Source of the DNA: a virus
Lineage: Duplodnaviria; Heunggongvirae; Uroviricota; Caudoviricetes
Strand: one strand, 5' to 3'
Length of the DNA: 64,000 nucleotides
Virus record (IMG/VR): IMGVR_UViG_3300029736_000004
Shown here: piece after piece, positions 4,040-64,000 of the stretch
Numbering within the stretch: position 1 is the stretch's first letter
Layout: each line of letters starts with the position of its first letter
Notes under the pieces: model-generated
Database searches by the model: none
What the model was told of the DNA's origin: nothing
What the model saw: the letters and a program-made list of their open reading frames with translations, nothing else
Position numbers and translations under genes: made by a program

Positions 4040-4324
4040 ATGAGTGCAATAGCGACCAGTGACACAGTTTGTTCTGGTCATGGAGGATTCCCTCCGCGAC
4101 CTGTAGCAGAAACAGTTTCCTGGTTTACCGTAAATGGAAAGCCAGTGGTTGTAGATGGGGGAGCGTTCCCCAGCCATACAGACGGAAATAGCGCGCACCC
4201 CGGATCAGCCGTATCGACGCGCTCATGGTTTGCAATAGGCGGAAAAGGAGTTGTTTGTGTGGGAGATCCCCTTTCTTGTGGCTCAGTCATCGCCAATGGT
4301 GAGGCAATTTTTCAGGTGTCATAA
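4040..4324 (+). CDS. PAAR-like spike-tip protein (putative)
   Basis: 94 aa; TVNGKPVVVDGG and VGDPLSCGSVIANG segments resemble PAAR repeats; AAGGAGG SD. Confidence 0.4.
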   Translation: MSAIATSDTVCSGHGGFPPRPVAETVSWFTVNGKPVVVDGGAFPSHTDGNSAHPGSAVSTRSWFAIGGKGVVCVGDPLSCGSVIANGEAIFQVS

Positions 4325-23348: not shown

Positions 23349-26300
23349 ATGTGCGCAGATAAAGTAAAGAATATTGTCACCTTATCTTCGGACATTTCCG
23401 CTCCACTAATTGCAGACATGCAATACTTTGAGCTGTATAGCACCGAAGCTCTAAACAGGAAGATGAAAAATATCGTTCTGCCCGGAGTGTACTGTGGGTT
23501 TGAACCGGTGCCAGGGGATGGTCTGTTTGTGCGTATTACATCCGAGAAAACAGAGGGAAGAGGGGCGGCTTCAATTGACGTGGGTAAATGTCAGATATCC
23601 GTGCAGCAAGTCAGTGATGTTCTTGTTCCTGTAGAAGCTGGTGTAACGACAATCATCGTTCTTGAAGCTAATTACGAACATGGAGTGAAAACCAGCCAGG
23701 TAGATAGCTCATCGGATATTAGCGCAGCGAGAATTATTGCTCTCGTTGATGAGGAAATAGCATCTAACCAGATTGAGCTATGCCGCGTGATCGTGCCTGA
23801 CAATGCTCAAGCCGTTACCGCAGATATGATTAGCACTGAATATCGTGCTAATCGTGCTGTTGGTGTTGAGTTTTCCAGTGCTTTGGATAGTGACGAAGAA
23901 TATAAAGCCGCAACACCTCTTGCTATCAGCACGTTAAACAAACTAAAAGCTCCGGTTGATAGCCCGGAGTTTATTGGTATACCTAAATCTCCAACTCCGG
24001 AACAAGGTACAAACAGTACACAAATCGCAAACACTGCCTTTGTTCAGGCCGCAATAACCGCCCTTATTGATGGTTCTCCTTCAGCGTTGGATACGCTGAA
24101 AAAAATTGCAGATGCAATTAACAATGATCCTCAGTTTAGCCAGACGATTAATGCTGCTTTAGCTCTTAAAGCACCGTTATTAAGCCCGGCATTTACAGGG
24201 GTGCCAACAGCGCCTACAGCGTCACAAGGTACGAACAACACTCAGATTGCAACAACCGCTTATGTTCGTGCCGCTATTTCTGCATTGGTCGGCTCATCAC
24301 CAGAAGCTCTTGATACTCTTAATGAGCTTGCTGCGGCGCTGGGCAATGACCCGAACTTTGCGGCTACAATGACAAATGCCCTGGCAGGTAAGCAGCCTCT
24401 CGACGCAACCTTAACCGCGCTCGCTGACCTGGCGACGGGGGCAAATAAATTACCGTACTTTACCGGAACAGACACTGTAGCCCAGACTGATTTAACGTCA
24501 GTCGGTCGCGATATTCTTGCTAAAACAAGCACACTGGCTGTTATCCAATACCTTGGTTTAAGAGAACTCGGAACCAGCGGAGAAAAGCTCCCCCTGTTGA
24601 GCACAGCTAATACCTGGAGTGCACGCCAGACTTTCAGCGCGGGGATCACTGGTACGCTGACCGGGAACGCCGATACTGCGACGAAATTAAAAACAGCCAG
24701 AAAGATTAACGGTGTGGCATTTGATGGGTCGGCAGATATTACTCTGACCCCTGAAGATCTTGGCTTAACGGATATTGCTTCTCAAGCTGGTAACGCAGTT
24801 CAGCGTTCTGGCGACACAATGGGGGGGCAGCTAAAAATTGGCACAATAAATGCCCTTCGAATATTTAACCAGGACTTTGGCCTTATCTTCAGGAGATCCG
24901 AGGAATATCTTCATCTTATCCCGACAAATGAAGGTGAGGGAGAAAATGGTGACATCGGCCCATTAAGACCTTTTGCTATAAATTTAAGAACCGGGTTGGT
25001 GTCCATCGGTAATGGGGTAACAGTTAGTGGTGGCATTACAGGTAATTTGACGGGAAACGCAGATACTGCCACAAAGCTCAAGATGGCCCGAACGATCGGC
25101 GGGGTGGCATTTGATGGCACCGCCAATATCGACCTGCCGGGTGTGAACATTGCCGGTAACCAGAACACAACAGGTAATGCTGCAACCGCTACAAAACTTC
25201 AGACGGCACGCACAATCAACGGTGTTAAGTTTGATGGTTCTGCGAACATTTCGATACCAACAATTACGTCCAGAGGGCGTGTTACTGCGCTCACCGGTAC
25301 AACGCAAGGTGCTGCTGCTGGATTGCAGATGTATGAGGCGTACAACAACGGCTATCCTTCTGCTTACGGGAATGTGCTTCATCTTAAGGGCGCAACGGCA
25401 GTTGGTGAAGGCGAGTTGTTCATAGGCTGGAGCGGTACAAGTGGCGCTCATGCCCCGGCTTTTATTCGCTCTCGCAGGGATTCAACAGATGCTGCATGGT
25501 CTGAGTGGGCGCAGGTCTACACATCGAAGGATTCCATCCCTGGTGTAAATACAACAGGCAACCAGAACACAACCGGAAACGCAGATACTGCCACAAAGCT
25601 CAAGATGGCCCGAACGATCGGCGGGGTGGCATTTGATGGCACCGCCAATATCAACCTGCCGGGCGTTAATAAAACAGGTAATCAGAGCACAACCGGTAAT
25701 GCTGCAACCGCAACAAAACTTCAGACGGCACGCACAATCGGCGGGGTGGCATTTGATGGCAGCGCCAATATCAACCTGCCGGGTGTGAACATTGCCGGTA
25801 ACCAGAACACAACAGGTAATGCTGCAACCGCTACAAAACTGCAAACAGCCCGCACAATCAACGGTGTTAAGTTTGATGGTTCTGCAGATATCACATTAAC
25901 GGCAAGTCATGTTGGTGCGTTACCAACAACAGGTGGTACTGTTACCGGTGAAATTATATCCAGCAGCCAAAATGCTATACGCCTAACTTATAATAATAAC
26001 TATGGATTCCTAATAACTAATACTGGATATAGTTTCCAGATATCAACCACTGGGCAAAATGTTAATGGTGATGTCGTTTACACTCCATTAAAGATAGATG
26101 GCGGTGATGGTCGCGTAGAATTAGGACGTGCTGATGGTCATGTAAGGGTTATGGGGAATTTATCTGCCGCTGGTCAGATTACCCCTGGTAACTATAGTAA
26201 TTTCAACACGAAATATCAGGCTAAAAACACAGCATATGCCAACATTCATGGATGGCATAAGGATACATCAACTAAGGTGATGATGCAGTGGGGGATTATA

Positions 26301-36468: not shown

Positions 36469-37428
36469 GTGAGTATTTTAAATTCAGTTTCAGTAACTTT
36501 CAACACTTCTGAGTATAAAAACAACACTGAATACCACAAAAAAATCAAAGGTCATCAGTTGAGTTTTTTTGCTCGTCATAGCGGTTTTCTTTCCCCTTCA
36601 CATAGCGCCATTATTGCCGAGTTCGCCAACCTGGCAGGAGCTACCGATGAATACATGATCCGTCGCTCATATGCTGATATGTCCGAGATTACAGGACGCA
36701 GTATTTCTACTGTGCGCCGGGCATTTACCGAAGCGACGAAGTGCGGAATGCTTGTTAAGCAGCATCAGGTAGCGAATAACAATGCTCAGGTGTGTAACGT
36801 GTACCGGTTTACAACACAATTTCTCCACTTCATTCATGTAGCAATGGAGATAGGGAGTAAGCAGGGCATCAAATTTGCCAACGCCACAAAACTGGTTAAG
36901 CAGTTGATTTCAAAGGTTCGTTATTTTTTTGAAACTGGGAACCCCCTGTTCAAATTGAACAAGTCCCCCCATGTTCAAAATGAACAGCCAATAGAAAATA
37001 AGAGTCACTCTATAGCCAAAAGAAGAGAAAGATCATGCGCGGTTCAGCCAAAGGCTTCACCAGCAGATAGTTCTCAAGCGGATAATGGCTTGCTGGATAA
37101 AAAAACAGTAATCAGGGAAGAACATACCAACCACTGCCTGGCGGCAGCAAAAGCGAGAGCTGCAAAGCGTCGTTCAGACGAGGGGTACGCAAAACGGCAG
37201 GCTCTGTATCGTACCGCTGAAAAACTGGCAAAAAAATTTGCATGGTTACGTAGTGCTACCACAGTGAATAAGCCCAAACGATCCAGCGCCCTGGATTTCT
37301 CTATGGATTATTCTGCTTCCCAGGGATGTGCAACCATCAATGAAGCATTTGACCTGATGAAACAGCGTGGCTATCGGTCTGAATTTGACCGGGAAGACTG
37401 GTCAATTCCGGAGGGCTTTCGGGGATGA
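36469..37428 (+). CDS. HTH DNA-binding protein, possible RepL-like replication initiator
   Basis: 319 aa; HTH-like ISTVRRAFTEATKCGMLVK; preceded by operator-like site and palindromes. Confidence 0.3.
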   Translation: MSILNSVSVTFNTSEYKNNTEYHKKIKGHQLSFFARHSGFLSPSHSAIIAEFANLAGATDEYMIRRSYADMSEITGRSISTVRRAFTEATKCGMLVKQHQVANNNAQVCNVYRFTTQFLHFIHVAMEIGSKQGIKFANATKLVKQLISKVRYFFETGNPLFKLNKSPHVQNEQPIENKSHSIAKRRERSCAVQPKASPADSSQADNGLLDKKTVIREEHTNHCLAAAKARAAKRRSDEGYAKRQALYRTAEKLAKKFAWLRSATTVNKPKRSSALDFSMDYSASQGCATINEAFDLMKQRGYRSEFDREDWSIPEGFRG

Positions 37429-58296: not shown

Positions 58297-59325
58297 ATGG
58301 GTGAACTAGTTATCTCCGGCGGTTCTGGTGGTTTTCTGCGCGATATTGGCACCGAATACCAGGAAGCTGCAAAAAACTTTATGCAGTTCATGAACGACCA
58401 GGGAGCTTATGCCCCAAATACGCTTCGAGATCTCCGTCTGGTGTTTCATTCCTGGGCGCGGTGGTGTAACTCGCGCCAGCGCCCCTGGTTCCCGATTACG
58501 CCGGAAATGGCCCGCGAGTATCTTCTCCAGTTGCATGAGGCCGATCTGGCTTCGACCACCATTGATAAGCACTATGCCATGCTTAACATGCTGCTTTCGC
58601 AATGTGGCCTCCCGCCGCTCTCGGACGATAAAAGTGTGTCTCTGGCCATGCGGCGCATCCGGCGCGAAGCGGCAACGGAAAAAGGCGAGCGAACAGGCCA
58701 GGCTATACCGTTGCGGTGGGATGATCTGAAATTGCTCGACGTGTTGCTGTCCCGTTCCGAGCGGCTGGTGGACCTGCGCAATCGGGCGTTTCTCTTCGTG
58801 GCATACAATACCCTGATGCGTATGTCAGAAATCTCGCGCATCCGCGTCGGAGATCTGGAACAAACAGGTGACACTGTAACGCTGCATATTTCACACACGA
58901 AGACCATCACGACCGCCGCCGGACTTGATAAGGTGCTTTCTCGTTACACTACCGCCGTACTGAACGACTGGCTGGAGGTGTCCGGACTTCGAGAACATCC
59001 GGACGCGGTGCTATTCCCGCCAATACACCGCAGTAATAAGGCCAGAATCACGACAACGCCCCTTACTGCACCTGCAATGGAGAAAATATTCAGCGATGCC
59101 TGGGGGTTGCTGAACAAACGAGATGCCACGCCGAACAAAGGAAGATACCGGACGTGGACAGGCCATAGTGCGCGTGTTGGTGCGGCAATTGATATGGCTG
59201 AGAAACAGGTGTCAATGGTCGAGATCATGCAGGAAGGCACATGGAAAAAGCCCGAAACACTTATGCGATATTTGCGCCGTAGCGGGGCATCCGTTGGTGC
59301 AAATAGTCGCCTGATGGATTCATAA
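58297..59325 (+). CDS. dre: Cre-family tyrosine recombinase (Dre-like)
   Basis: WARWCNSRQRPWFPITPEMAREYLLQL...LPPLSDDKSVSLAMRRIRRE aligns with Cre WAAWCKLNNRKWFPAEPEDVRDYLLYL...SNAVSLVMRRIRKE; C-terminal WTGHSARVGAAIDMA catalytic region; rox-like site 160 bp upstream. Confidence 0.7.
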   Translation: MGELVISGGSGGFLRDIGTEYQEAAKNFMQFMNDQGAYAPNTLRDLRLVFHSWARWCNSRQRPWFPITPEMAREYLLQLHEADLASTTIDKHYAMLNMLLSQCGLPPLSDDKSVSLAMRRIRREAATEKGERTGQAIPLRWDDLKLLDVLLSRSERLVDLRNRAFLFVAYNTLMRMSEISRIRVGDLEQTGDTVTLHISHTKTITTAAGLDKVLSRYTTAVLNDWLEVSGLREHPDAVLFPPIHRSNKARITTTPLTAPAMEKIFSDAWGLLNKRDATPNKGRYRTWTGHSARVGAAIDMAEKQVSMVEIMQEGTWKKPETLMRYLRRSGASVGANSRLMDS

Positions 59326-60732: not shown

Positions 60733-61419
60733 ATGGCCAGCACTTTTCAGGTGTTCCCCAAATACAAAAGCCACAGCATCATTCGGGCATCGAAAATCAA
60801 AGATATTGTTATTGTCGGCGAAGCTTATGCGCCCATTTTTGGCAGTATCGAAGTCGTGGAGCCAAAAGGAATGACGCTTCGTGTTGATGGTGTGTTCTTG
60901 GAAAAATTCCGACCGCAAATAGGAGGATATCTCGTCACTGCTGAAAATGGCTATCTGGTCTATGTGCCAGAGAAAGCATTTGAAAAATGCTATAGCCGGG
61001 TTAACGACGCCTCCGAAAATGGGGTATCGCTCAGCATTGAAGGTCACAATGGGGTGACATTCATTACAGCCAGGGACGTAACTATTTCTGCAGGCGGTAT
61101 CGCTACTCTACAAGAAGAAATCGACCTTGAAGCAGCCGACTTTTCTGACGCGCTGATGTGGCTGAAGGATGGCAAGAAAGTTGCCCGGCGCGGGTGGAAT
61201 GGCGAAAACCAATTCTGCTGGCTGGTTCCAGACAAACAGGGCGCTTCAAGACTAACCCCTATAAAACATGCCATCAATGGAGAGCTTGAAATCAATTTCG
61301 ACTCTCCTCTTGCTCCTTATGGTACGCATTTCGCTTTGAAAAATGCACAAGGTGTAGTTGTTCCGTGGGTGCCTTCAGTTGGCGACCTGCTGGCCTGTGA
61401 CTGGTTTGTTGTGGAGTGA
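60733..61419 (+). CDS. hypothetical protein with C-terminal W-domain (MWLKDGKKVARRGW ... CDWFVVE)
   Basis: 228 aa; C-terminal domain shares the signature of three other proteins in the window. Confidence 0.45.
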   Translation: MASTFQVFPKYKSHSIIRASKIKDIVIVGEAYAPIFGSIEVVEPKGMTLRVDGVFLEKFRPQIGGYLVTAENGYLVYVPEKAFEKCYSRVNDASENGVSLSIEGHNGVTFITARDVTISAGGIATLQEEIDLEAADFSDALMWLKDGKKVARRGWNGENQFCWLVPDKQGASRLTPIKHAINGELEINFDSPLAPYGTHFALKNAQGVVVPWVPSVGDLLACDWFVVE

Positions 61420-61425
61420 TTTAAC

Positions 61426-62223
61426 GTGGAAAATACCAAGAACATTCAATATCGCCTGCGTAACGGCCTGCTGGTGGATGTAAACGATGATATGTCCCTG
61501 CCCTTTGCCACCATTGAGCGAACCATCCTTACATACCTGGGTTTAGACGAAGAGTTAGATAGTGAGAATGGCATTGCTATCTGGCGTGACGGAAAAACGG
61601 GAGTCAGACGTTTTATTACGGCAAGAGGCATTCAGTGCACACAGGAAGAATTGTTTGAACTGGCGCAGTCTTATGGATGCATCGCGTTAGATCCCCTGCA
61701 TGACCCAGCCATAGCGCAACAACTCATTCGAGAGCTGTCGCTTTCGGTCACGCCAATAATCTTCCGCCAGGGAACCTTAACCGGCACATGGCGTGTAGAA
61801 CGCATCTCTAAATATCAGCCATATAATATCCATTTGAACGGCACTATTACTGGTGTGGATCAACCAGTAGCAGGTGAAAACAAAGACCTGGAACTTGCAG
61901 TAATGATGGCTGCTTGTCGCGTGCTTGGCCTGGGCAAGCAGATGTTTATCCATTTCCCAAACGGCGCGGAAGGCGAAGTAGAGCTGATTTCCTGCGACTT
62001 TTCCTTAACCTGGATGCTTGATGAATTCCTGGACAAAACAGTATTCCGTGCTGAAGAACTGGATATGTATGTCACCTCAAGTATTCCTAATGACGTGAAA
62101 GTTGAGGCCATCGCTACAGCCAGGGCGAAATGCCGTGCGGCGATTGCAGAACAGGCCAAAGAAGAACAGTCCGATGAAGTCGCGGCAGATGTGGAAGCAG
62201 AGGATGCTGATGCTGACGCCTAA
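61426..62223 (+). CDS. hypothetical protein (acidic C-terminus)
   Basis: 265-aa ORF; hairpin terminator follows. Confidence 0.45.
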   Translation: MENTKNIQYRLRNGLLVDVNDDMSLPFATIERTILTYLGLDEELDSENGIAIWRDGKTGVRRFITARGIQCTQEELFELAQSYGCIALDPLHDPAIAQQLIRELSLSVTPIIFRQGTLTGTWRVERISKYQPYNIHLNGTITGVDQPVAGENKDLELAVMMAACRVLGLGKQMFIHFPNGAEGEVELISCDFSLTWMLDEFLDKTVFRAEELDMYVTSSIPNDVKVEAIATARAKCRAAIAEQAKEEQSDEVAADVEAEDADADA

Positions 62224-62273
62224 AAGCAAGAAATTAGCTGGCTGACAGCAGAAAAAATCATTGAGTGATAGTA

Positions 62274-62305
62274 GGAAGCCCGCTTGGTTGAGCGGGCTTC
62301 TTTTC
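62274..62305. terminator. bidirectional terminator-like hairpin between convergent genes
   Basis: GGAAGCCCGC-TTGGTTGA-GCGGGCTTC followed by TTTTC. Confidence 0.5.
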
Positions 62306-62684
62306 AAATATTGGAACCATATAGTTCACGTAGTTTTTCCGCTACTGAAGATACGGGGATTTCACCAGTTGCAGCCCCCACCGCAAGTTCCACCAGCACG
62401 GGAGAATCATATACCTGTATACCGTTACGGCGTAGAAATAGCAGCGCACTGTTTAGCGCGGTACGCTTATTGGCATCATTGAATATATGCCCTCTCGCAG
62501 TAGCCACCAGGTAGGTGGCGGAGACTTCGAAAAGGCCGGTGATCTCTTCGTAGGCAACTCTGGCCTGAACTCTCCCGATAATGGCCTCTGCCCTACCCGG
62601 ATCTGACATTCCCGGCAGGCCGCCGTAGCGGTTTATATTCGCATCATGAAGCGCAATAAGTTCTTCCGGTGATATATGCCTCAT
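62304..62684 (-). CDS. doc: Doc toxin (Fic/Doc family)
   Basis: [11 protein letters not shown] Fic/Doc motif; sequence near-identical to P1 Doc as I recall it; start overlaps phd stop. Confidence 0.85.
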
Positions 62685-62905
62685 TATCGGTTAACCAGTT
62701 CCTTGTTAGTGGAGTCCAGGGTGTCAAACAGGGATGCAAATTCAGCATCCAGCGCCGCTTTTTTGTAGGCTTCGAAAGTAGCCTTGCTGACAATTACTGC
62801 TGGCTCACGGCCTCTGCGGGTGATTTCAACCTCTTCACCGGCTTCAACATTGTTGAGCACTTCAGAAAGGTTGCCACGCGCGGTACGGAAGTTAATGGAT
62901 TGCAT
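62684..62905 (-). CDS. phd: Phd antitoxin
   Basis: [49 protein letters not shown]... matches P1 Phd as recalled; GAGGTG SD; start set at second Met. Confidence 0.85.
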
Positions 62906-62977
62906 AAACACCTCGTGTACTCGTTATGTGTACACAATTATAAACTTCACAGGCATAAAGCACCAGCACTTTGCAGC

Positions 62978-63367
62978 TTAAATAACCGGACAATCATCAA
63001 ATTCCCCACTCCGGGCATCATTGATGATGTGAGTGATCACGCCAAACACAGCATTGCTACCAGTATATCCATCATCATCCACTGGCAACGCCTCTTTCTT
63101 CCCGGTGCTTAAATCTTCCAGGTGCTGGCTCGGATGCTTCCGGTATCTCTTTATGCGATATTCCCCCTCTATAGCGCATACAAGCAGTGAACCATCAACC
63201 GGAGTAAGTGAGGAATCAACCACCAGCAAAGCACCTTGCAATATTCCCTCACGGTGATGGCTGTCTGCCGCCCGCATGAAGTAGGTCGCTGAAGGATGTC
63301 TGATTAGTTGCTGATCAAGAGAAATACGGCTCTCTGCATAATCCGCCGCAGGAGAAGGGAAGCCCAT
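62978..63367 (-). CDS. humD: UmuD-like SOS protein (HumD-like)
   Basis: 129 aa, GFPSPAADY N-terminus, S24 peptidase-like; LexA box directly upstream; humD-phd-doc order as in P1. Confidence 0.7.
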   Translation of the reverse strand: MGFPSPAADYAESRISLDQQLIRHPSATYFMRAADSHHREGILQGALLVVDSSLTPVDGSLLVCAIEGEYRIKRYRKHPSQHLEDLSTGKKEALPVDDDGYTGSNAVFGVITHIINDARSGEFDDCPVI

Positions 63368-63387
63368 AGCGTTTTACCTCAATGATA

Positions 63388-63403
63388 CTGTTTATTCATA
63401 CAG
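63388..63403. promoter_or_regulatory. LexA box (SOS operator)
   Basis: CTGTTTATTCATACAG = CTGT-N8-ACAG, ending about 20 nt upstream of the humD start. Confidence 0.65.
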
Positions 63404-63466
63404 TATACATTGAAAAGGCATAGTTTGTGAAAGCGGGGTTTGTACGCGCGCCACGCTGGGGGCTAA

Positions 63467-63817
63467 TCACATTGGTGGCGTGAACGTGCCATTCATATAT
63501 TGCAAAATGCTTGACTCGATTTTTTCATTAAAATCAGAATGATGCTCCTCAAGGACAAAGCGCGCCTTATTGTTGCGCACAATAACCTCCGCCAACGGCT
63601 TAACCAGAGATGTGGAGTTAGAGATTTTCTCGGCGCGCTCTACATCGCTTTTAAACGTTACGATGAAGTGCTGGTGGCCTGGTGACCGGCGACACAACAT
63701 GCGTCGCACTTCCACGGTATCTTCACGGCCTTGAGTATGTACAGGAAAGCTATCGACCACCGCTGTATTGGTGCGGATTGTCTGCATAGAACGCGTGTTG
63801 TCGTGATAGTTAAGCAT
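63467..63817 (-). CDS. hypothetical protein
   Basis: GGGGGAG SD before ATG 63817 (ORF track lists a longer 63467-63964 frame). Confidence 0.4.
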   Translation of the reverse strand: MLNYHDNTRSMQTIRTNTAVVDSFPVHTQGREDTVEVRRMLCRRSPGHQHFIVTFKSDVERAEKISNSTSLVKPLAEVIVRNNKARFVLEEHHSDFNEKIESSILQYMNGTFTPPM

Positions 63818-64000
63818 GTTTAATGTCTCCCCCATCTTGCCGTTATTTTTTTGGTGCATCCTCGTTCTGATACACCGGATCGCTCCCTTTTGGCAACTGG
63901 AGGGGGTTCCGTGGGAATTTCTGCGATAACACCCGCTAAGCGATTCCTCCCTGACGGAAATCACTTGTTTTCCGTCAGGTCCTGCAGTTGAAGAAAATTG

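Follow-up and report, generated by a model that had tools for sequence, protein, structure and literature searches.

The locus raises the question of whether a umuD-like gene of a phage genome is placed under the SOS response of the host, and whether this control could extend to the toxin-antitoxin genes that follow it. The window, meaning the complete 64-kb stretch of DNA analysed here, carries the three genes concerned on the minus strand. The gene humD (62978..63367) encodes 129 aa and was assigned to Peptidase_S24 (PF00717, E 2.3e-9) and to phrog_811, annotated as 'UmuD-like' (E 2.5e-54). It is followed by the antitoxin gene phd (62684..62905), whose product of 73 aa matched PhdYeFM_antitox (PF02604, E 2.8e-13) and phrog_375. 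The toxin gene doc (62304..62684) encodes 126 aa with matches to Fic/DOC (PF02661, E 8.8e-9) and phrog_577 (E 1.7e-45). The phd stop codon TAA (62686..62684) and the doc ATG (62684..62682) have one base in common. With these reading frames, the profile matches and the sequence TAATG at 62686-62682, the preliminary description of humD, phd and doc as neighbours on one strand with a 1-nt overlap between the last two proved accurate. A LexA (SOS) box, TACTGTATGAATAAACAGTA on the gene strand, was located at 63386..63405 (minus strand). Its CTGT-N8-ACAG core lies at 63388-63403, which places the motif where it had been described, about 20 nt 5' of humD. The distance to the humD ATG is 18 nt from the 20-mer box and 20 nt from the ACAG core, and a GAGGT ribosome-binding site is present 8 nt 5' of the ATG.

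In principle, the palindrome could have arisen by chance or be a relic, and regulate nothing. For the core this objection holds, as CTGT-N8-ACAG is expected 0.75 times per window and occurred at least once in 53 of 100 shuffles, and is not significant by itself. The complete box, however, is perfect at all 12 outer positions when compared with TACTGT-(AT)4-ACAGTA. It matches the consensus at 17 of 20 positions, and seven of the eight spacer bases are A or T. The 12-base motif TACTGT-N8-ACAGTA has a single occurrence in the window, and 0 of 100 shuffles contained it. The box also held the highest score in the 64-kb window with a position weight matrix. Its 25.6 bits lie at the upper end of the range of the training sites and equal the best Escherichia coli SOS boxes, in an exploratory matrix derived from 16 SOS boxes of E. 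coli known from the literature. A candidate box with two mismatches at 25937 was dropped for its poor matrix score. The inverted-repeat search, which requires longer arms, did not report the LexA palindrome or the Phd palindromes discussed below. A umuD homologue has the box at its promoter here, exactly the arrangement of E. coli umuDC, and this adds weight against chance. The umuDC operator of E. coli K-12, TACTGTATATAAAAACAGTA, lies 19 nt before the umuD ATG; 17 of its 20 bases are shared with the box of the window, and the spacing is nearly the same.

Conservation was assessed in 84 related loci, comprising P1, P7, D6, one Escherichia marmotae plasmid and, from IMG/VR, 80 contigs whose HumD has 93-96% identity. 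An intact CTGT-N8-ACAG motif precedes humD in 84/84 of them. The box occurs in 11 distinct variants, all with invariant CTGT and ACAG cores. Variation is mostly found at spacer positions 7-10 and 13 and occasionally at the outer positions 2, 19 and 20. Invariant cores with a drifting spacer are what selection on a LexA operator would be expected to leave, and the alignment lends modest support to such an operator. Taken with the shuffles and the location, these data make a chance or relic origin of the palindrome extremely improbable.

A second alternative is that the box chiefly serves another gene, either as an operator shared with a divergent gene or as a LexA roadblock to co-oriented transcription arriving from upstream, where a 116-aa ORF and a remnant of hot are found. 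The record of P1 (AF234172) gives some reason for this: its LexA site, located 20 nt 5' of humD and followed by Pphd, phd and doc, is assigned to 'the regulatory region of lxr and humD'. In the window, 61 nt separate the end of the co-oriented ORF from the box downstream, and no terminator was predicted in this interval. Lxr is divergent from humD in P1, whereas the window lacks lxr and has no divergent gene adjoining the box, its upstream neighbours being the co-oriented 116-aa ORF and the hot remnant. Upstream neighbours were highly variable among the 84 loci and consisted of hot, divergent lxr, the 116-aa ORF or none of these. The box is nevertheless kept, and its distance to the humD ATG was always 18-19 nt in the 83 extracted sequences, which include the window (L039 and L081 fell outside the extraction pattern). 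Retention at a fixed distance next to such different neighbours ties the box to humD, and a main role for another gene is considered improbable.

The 116-aa ORF itself (63467-63817, minus strand) belongs to phrog_2594, has no Pfam match and is located just upstream of the humD promoter, where P1 has lxr. Few of the 84 related loci have it. Homology to relatives with hot, which encodes a theta subunit homologue, ends at 63903 and only the last ~20 codons of the gene are left. The final ~100 nt of the window match, at 97-100%, DNA directly before a resolvase and a Tn3-family transposase on the E. coli plasmid NZ_OZ546927. The same ~100 nt are also present in two Yersinia phages. These 100% phage matches had led to a provisional assignment of 63903-64000 as an IS element, which was revised in view of the neighbouring resolvase and Tn3-family transposase. 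These last bases are probably one end of a Tn3-family transposon that has inserted into hot.

A sigma-70 promoter for humD was predicted at 63402..63431 (minus strand), with the -35 element TTCACA at 63431-63426, an 18-nt spacer and the -10 element TATACT at 63407-63402. It has 10 of 12 consensus matches in a consensus scan, and its -10 hexamer overlaps the left half of the LexA box. The promoter scan found two promoter-like sites against 2.5 expected from shuffles, i.e., no excess. TATACT and a -35-like hexamer 18-19 nt upstream persist across upstream alleles that are otherwise diverged. The -35-like hexamer is TTCACA in the window and the D6 type and TTGCAC in the P1 type. In the P1 record, a 'predicted' PhumD is placed differently, ~480 nt further upstream and inside lxr, which counts against a start site at the box. 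The persistence of both hexamers suggests that humD is in fact transcribed from a promoter overlapping the box, of the kind known from classical SOS genes, and not from one ~480 nt upstream. At the -10-like hexamer, the laboratory P1 c1.100 reference (L001, AF234172, locus 4041-4070) reads TGTACT, as against TATACT in P7 and nearly all the other relatives. Of the two hexamers overlapping the LexA box, TATACT is the better -10-like sequence, and the humD promoter of P1 c1.100 may be weakened by TGTACT.

Comparison with the known phages showed that P1 (AF234172) and P7 (AF503408) share the three genes of the window, with order and strand unchanged, and have the same LexA box position and TAATG overlap. 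By alignment, the box of the window is the homologue of the LexA sites annotated in P1 and P7. The P7 record has its LexA site at the same place, labelled 'regulation of humD expression'. These annotations agree with the preliminary description in linking humD to the SOS response. The box spacer is ATGAATAA in the window compared with ATAAATGA in P1, and the distance from box to ATG is one base shorter than in P1. The box of D6 (MF356679) is identical to that of the window, TACTGTATGAATAAACAGTA. In the literature, humD has been named as a LexA-regulated SOS gene (PMC9603915, 2022, citing McLenigan et al. 1999). The same paper lists the humD-phd-doc cluster among the few regions that P1-like phage-plasmids of a second subgroup have in common with P1 (PMC9603915). 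A cassette of SOS-controlled humD with phd-doc is thus already known from P1 and is ordinary here, in its usual D6-type place.

The HumD protein of the window shows 95% identity to its P1 counterpart and 43% to UmuD of E. coli. The UmuD' structures 1umu and 1i4v matched HumD with E values of 1e-22 to 2e-23. Compared with E. coli UmuD, HumD is without the 24-residue N-terminal tail and begins at the Cys24/Gly25 cleavage site. Residue 2 of HumD aligns with Gly25 of full-length UmuD (8gmt_B 25-136), the first residue of processed UmuD'. The Ser-Lys dyad is conserved in the UmuD alignment as HumD Ser36 and Lys73, corresponding to UmuD Ser60 and Lys97. By this alignment, HumD is a predicted stand-alone UmuD'-like protein that is already 'processed', and since it starts at the cleavage site it would need no RecA-mediated processing. 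No UmuC homologue was found in the 64-kb window in a tblastn search with E. coli UmuC (best E = 1.9), so HumD would have to work with host UmuC, as for P1. Compared with the umuDC operon of E. coli, the place of umuC after humD is taken by the toxin-antitoxin pair. P1 HumD reportedly complements umuD' in SOS mutagenesis with host UmuC (McLenigan 1999). The HumD of the window would be expected to do the same, given its 95% identity to P1 HumD.

The phd gene, encoding an antitoxin of the Phd/YefM type, lies directly 5' of doc, which encodes a Fic-fold toxin, and the two are translationally coupled by TAATG at 62684. Phd is 100% identical to P1 Phd (tblastn). Doc shows 89% identity to that of P1 and 99% to the copy of the E. 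marmotae plasmid, with differences clustering in the C-terminal third. The catalytic motif of Fic/Doc proteins is H-x-F-x-[DN]-[AG]-N-K-R. It was found in Doc as HIFNDANKR at residues 66-74 and is invariant in the copies of the window, P1, D6 and E. marmotae. The stop of humD and the start of phd are separated by 72 nt that are base-for-base identical to P1. This gap therefore carries the annotated Pphd together with two palindromes (62914-62936). The addiction operon promoter, Pphd, is located at 62937..62965 (minus strand), with -10 TATAAT at 62942-62937 and -35 TGGTGC at 62965-62960, in coordinates transferred from the P1 record. The two adjacent palindromes at 62914..62936 (minus strand), read in the sequence as TGTGTACACA at 62927-62936 and CGAGTACACG at 62914-62923, we take to be Phd/Doc operator sites from the P1 work of Magnuson and Yarmolinsky. 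As read from these elements, phd-doc is a predicted separate type II toxin-antitoxin operon with its own promoter and putative Phd operators.

At the other end of doc, a GC-rich hairpin, GAAGCCCGC-N-GCGGGCTTC, occupies 62274..62302 between the convergent doc and isaA-like genes. A terminator-like site was detected on the plus strand at 62282-62297, followed by TTCTTTT, and the minus strand of the hairpin is without a T tract. The hairpin is the predicted terminator of the plus-strand gene, and likely also marks the end of the doc transcript. The Rfam scan of 62000-64000 gave nothing near threshold. Weak matches to Leu/Trp leaders at 62233-62305 were rejected, as they merely represent the terminator hairpin.

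The separate promoter bears directly on the question of whether SOS control could extend beyond humD. If humD, phd and doc formed one SOS-inducible unit, transcripts from the humD promoter would cross the 72-nt gap and DNA damage would raise phd-doc, a read-through that had been put forward in the preliminary description. The three genes lie on one strand and no intrinsic terminator was predicted in the 72-nt gap between humD and phd. Folding of the humD-phd intergenic RNA against shuffles gave no unusual structure (z = 0.5), and thus no hidden terminator or riboswitch in the gap. Most of the 84 loci retain the spacing of 72 nt. The phd-doc pair, however, has its own promoter and operators identical to those of P1, and bound Phd/Doc repressor could block elongation of transcripts reading through from humD. 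D6 has the additional gene orf109 between humD and phd, giving a gap of 665 nt, and a pdcA-like gene after doc, whereas the window has the compact P1-like gap of 72 nt. As orf109 separates the two genes in D6-type loci, tight coupling of humD and phd is not required. Read-through would moreover raise toxin and antitoxin together, with an unclear effect. In the literature searched, no report or data on SOS read-through into phd-doc were found. The mRNAs of humD, phd and hot have been measured after thermal induction only (PMC4713147); since this is not SOS induction, the study is silent on read-through. On balance, a single SOS-inducible unit is a possibility that we regard as rather doubtful, and separate control of humD and phd-doc is the preferred reading.

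The position of the cassette in the genome was compared with D6 and P1. A tyrosine recombinase encoded at 58297..59325 is 94% identical to Dre of D6, and five genes lie between the Dre recombinase and doc. Gene order follows the D6 record, with dre, two ORFs, dUTPase, a DUF2829 protein and the isaA-like gene, then the convergent doc-phd-humD. Downstream of doc, P1 has pdcA-pdcB-lpa, in the place of which the window has the convergent isaA-like gene. The 94% identity to Dre and the gene order uphold the placement of the module after dre and not before lpa. From the comparison, phage D6 and D6-like plasmid prophages normally have the module at this position, which is no peculiarity of this element. 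Among the 84 loci, most contexts were of the P1 type with pdcA-pdcB-lpa downstream, and roughly a fifth were of the D6 type with the convergent isaA-like gene. Unlike in D6-like relatives, hot is cut in the window at about 63903 by foreign DNA. The E. marmotae plasmid NZ_CP099353 is 98.2% identical over 96% of the region, and this best plasmid match has the same replicon type as other D6-like plasmids. Judged by these matches, the window is a D6-like plasmid prophage carrying a P1-type humD-phd-doc cassette.

Two further features of the window were recorded. Between the dUTPase and the isaA-like gene, 60733-61419 (plus strand) encodes a protein of 228 aa with a C-terminal Tad2-like domain (Thoeris anti-defence 2 / DUF2829, E 1e-21). 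This may be an anti-defence gene. Another palindrome resembling a LexA box, TGCTGGATAAAAAAACAGTA, was found at 37091-37110 inside the repL-like 'lytic replication protein' gene at 36469..37428 (plus strand). Its score with the exploratory SOS-box matrix, 21.2 bits, lies among those of genuine E. coli sites. The counterpart in D6 and three other plasmids reads TACTGGATAAAAAA[C/A]CAGTA, and the codons just 5' of it vary more. This palindrome might hint at a LexA input into lytic replication, or it may have arisen by chance within the coding sequence.

Altogether, one arrangement is considered very probable, in which humD is expressed from a LexA-repressed promoter that overlaps the box and is relieved by damage, HumD acts in a pre-activated form with host UmuC, and phd-doc is an independent, autoregulated addiction operon. 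Host LexA would bind the strong SOS box overlapping the -10/start region of the humD promoter and keep humD off. After DNA damage, RecA-stimulated cleavage of LexA would free the promoter and HumD would be made. As a UmuD' homologue for which no self-cleavage is needed, HumD would join host UmuC to form an active translesion polymerase. Pphd and the operators bound by Phd/Doc would control phd-doc, and post-segregational killing would stabilise the plasmid prophage. For LexA binding, SOS induction, HumD function and Phd-Doc autoregulation, we infer these steps from the work on P1.

The result amounts to a correct annotation, by which the window belongs to a D6-like plasmid prophage with a P1-type humD and a P1-type Phd-Doc module. 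Spill-over of the SOS response into phd-doc is a further, rather doubtful possibility at this locus. If it occurs, SOS transcripts would pass the Phd/Doc-repressed Pphd and boost phd-doc during DNA damage, and the dosage of plasmid addiction would be coupled to the SOS state of the host.
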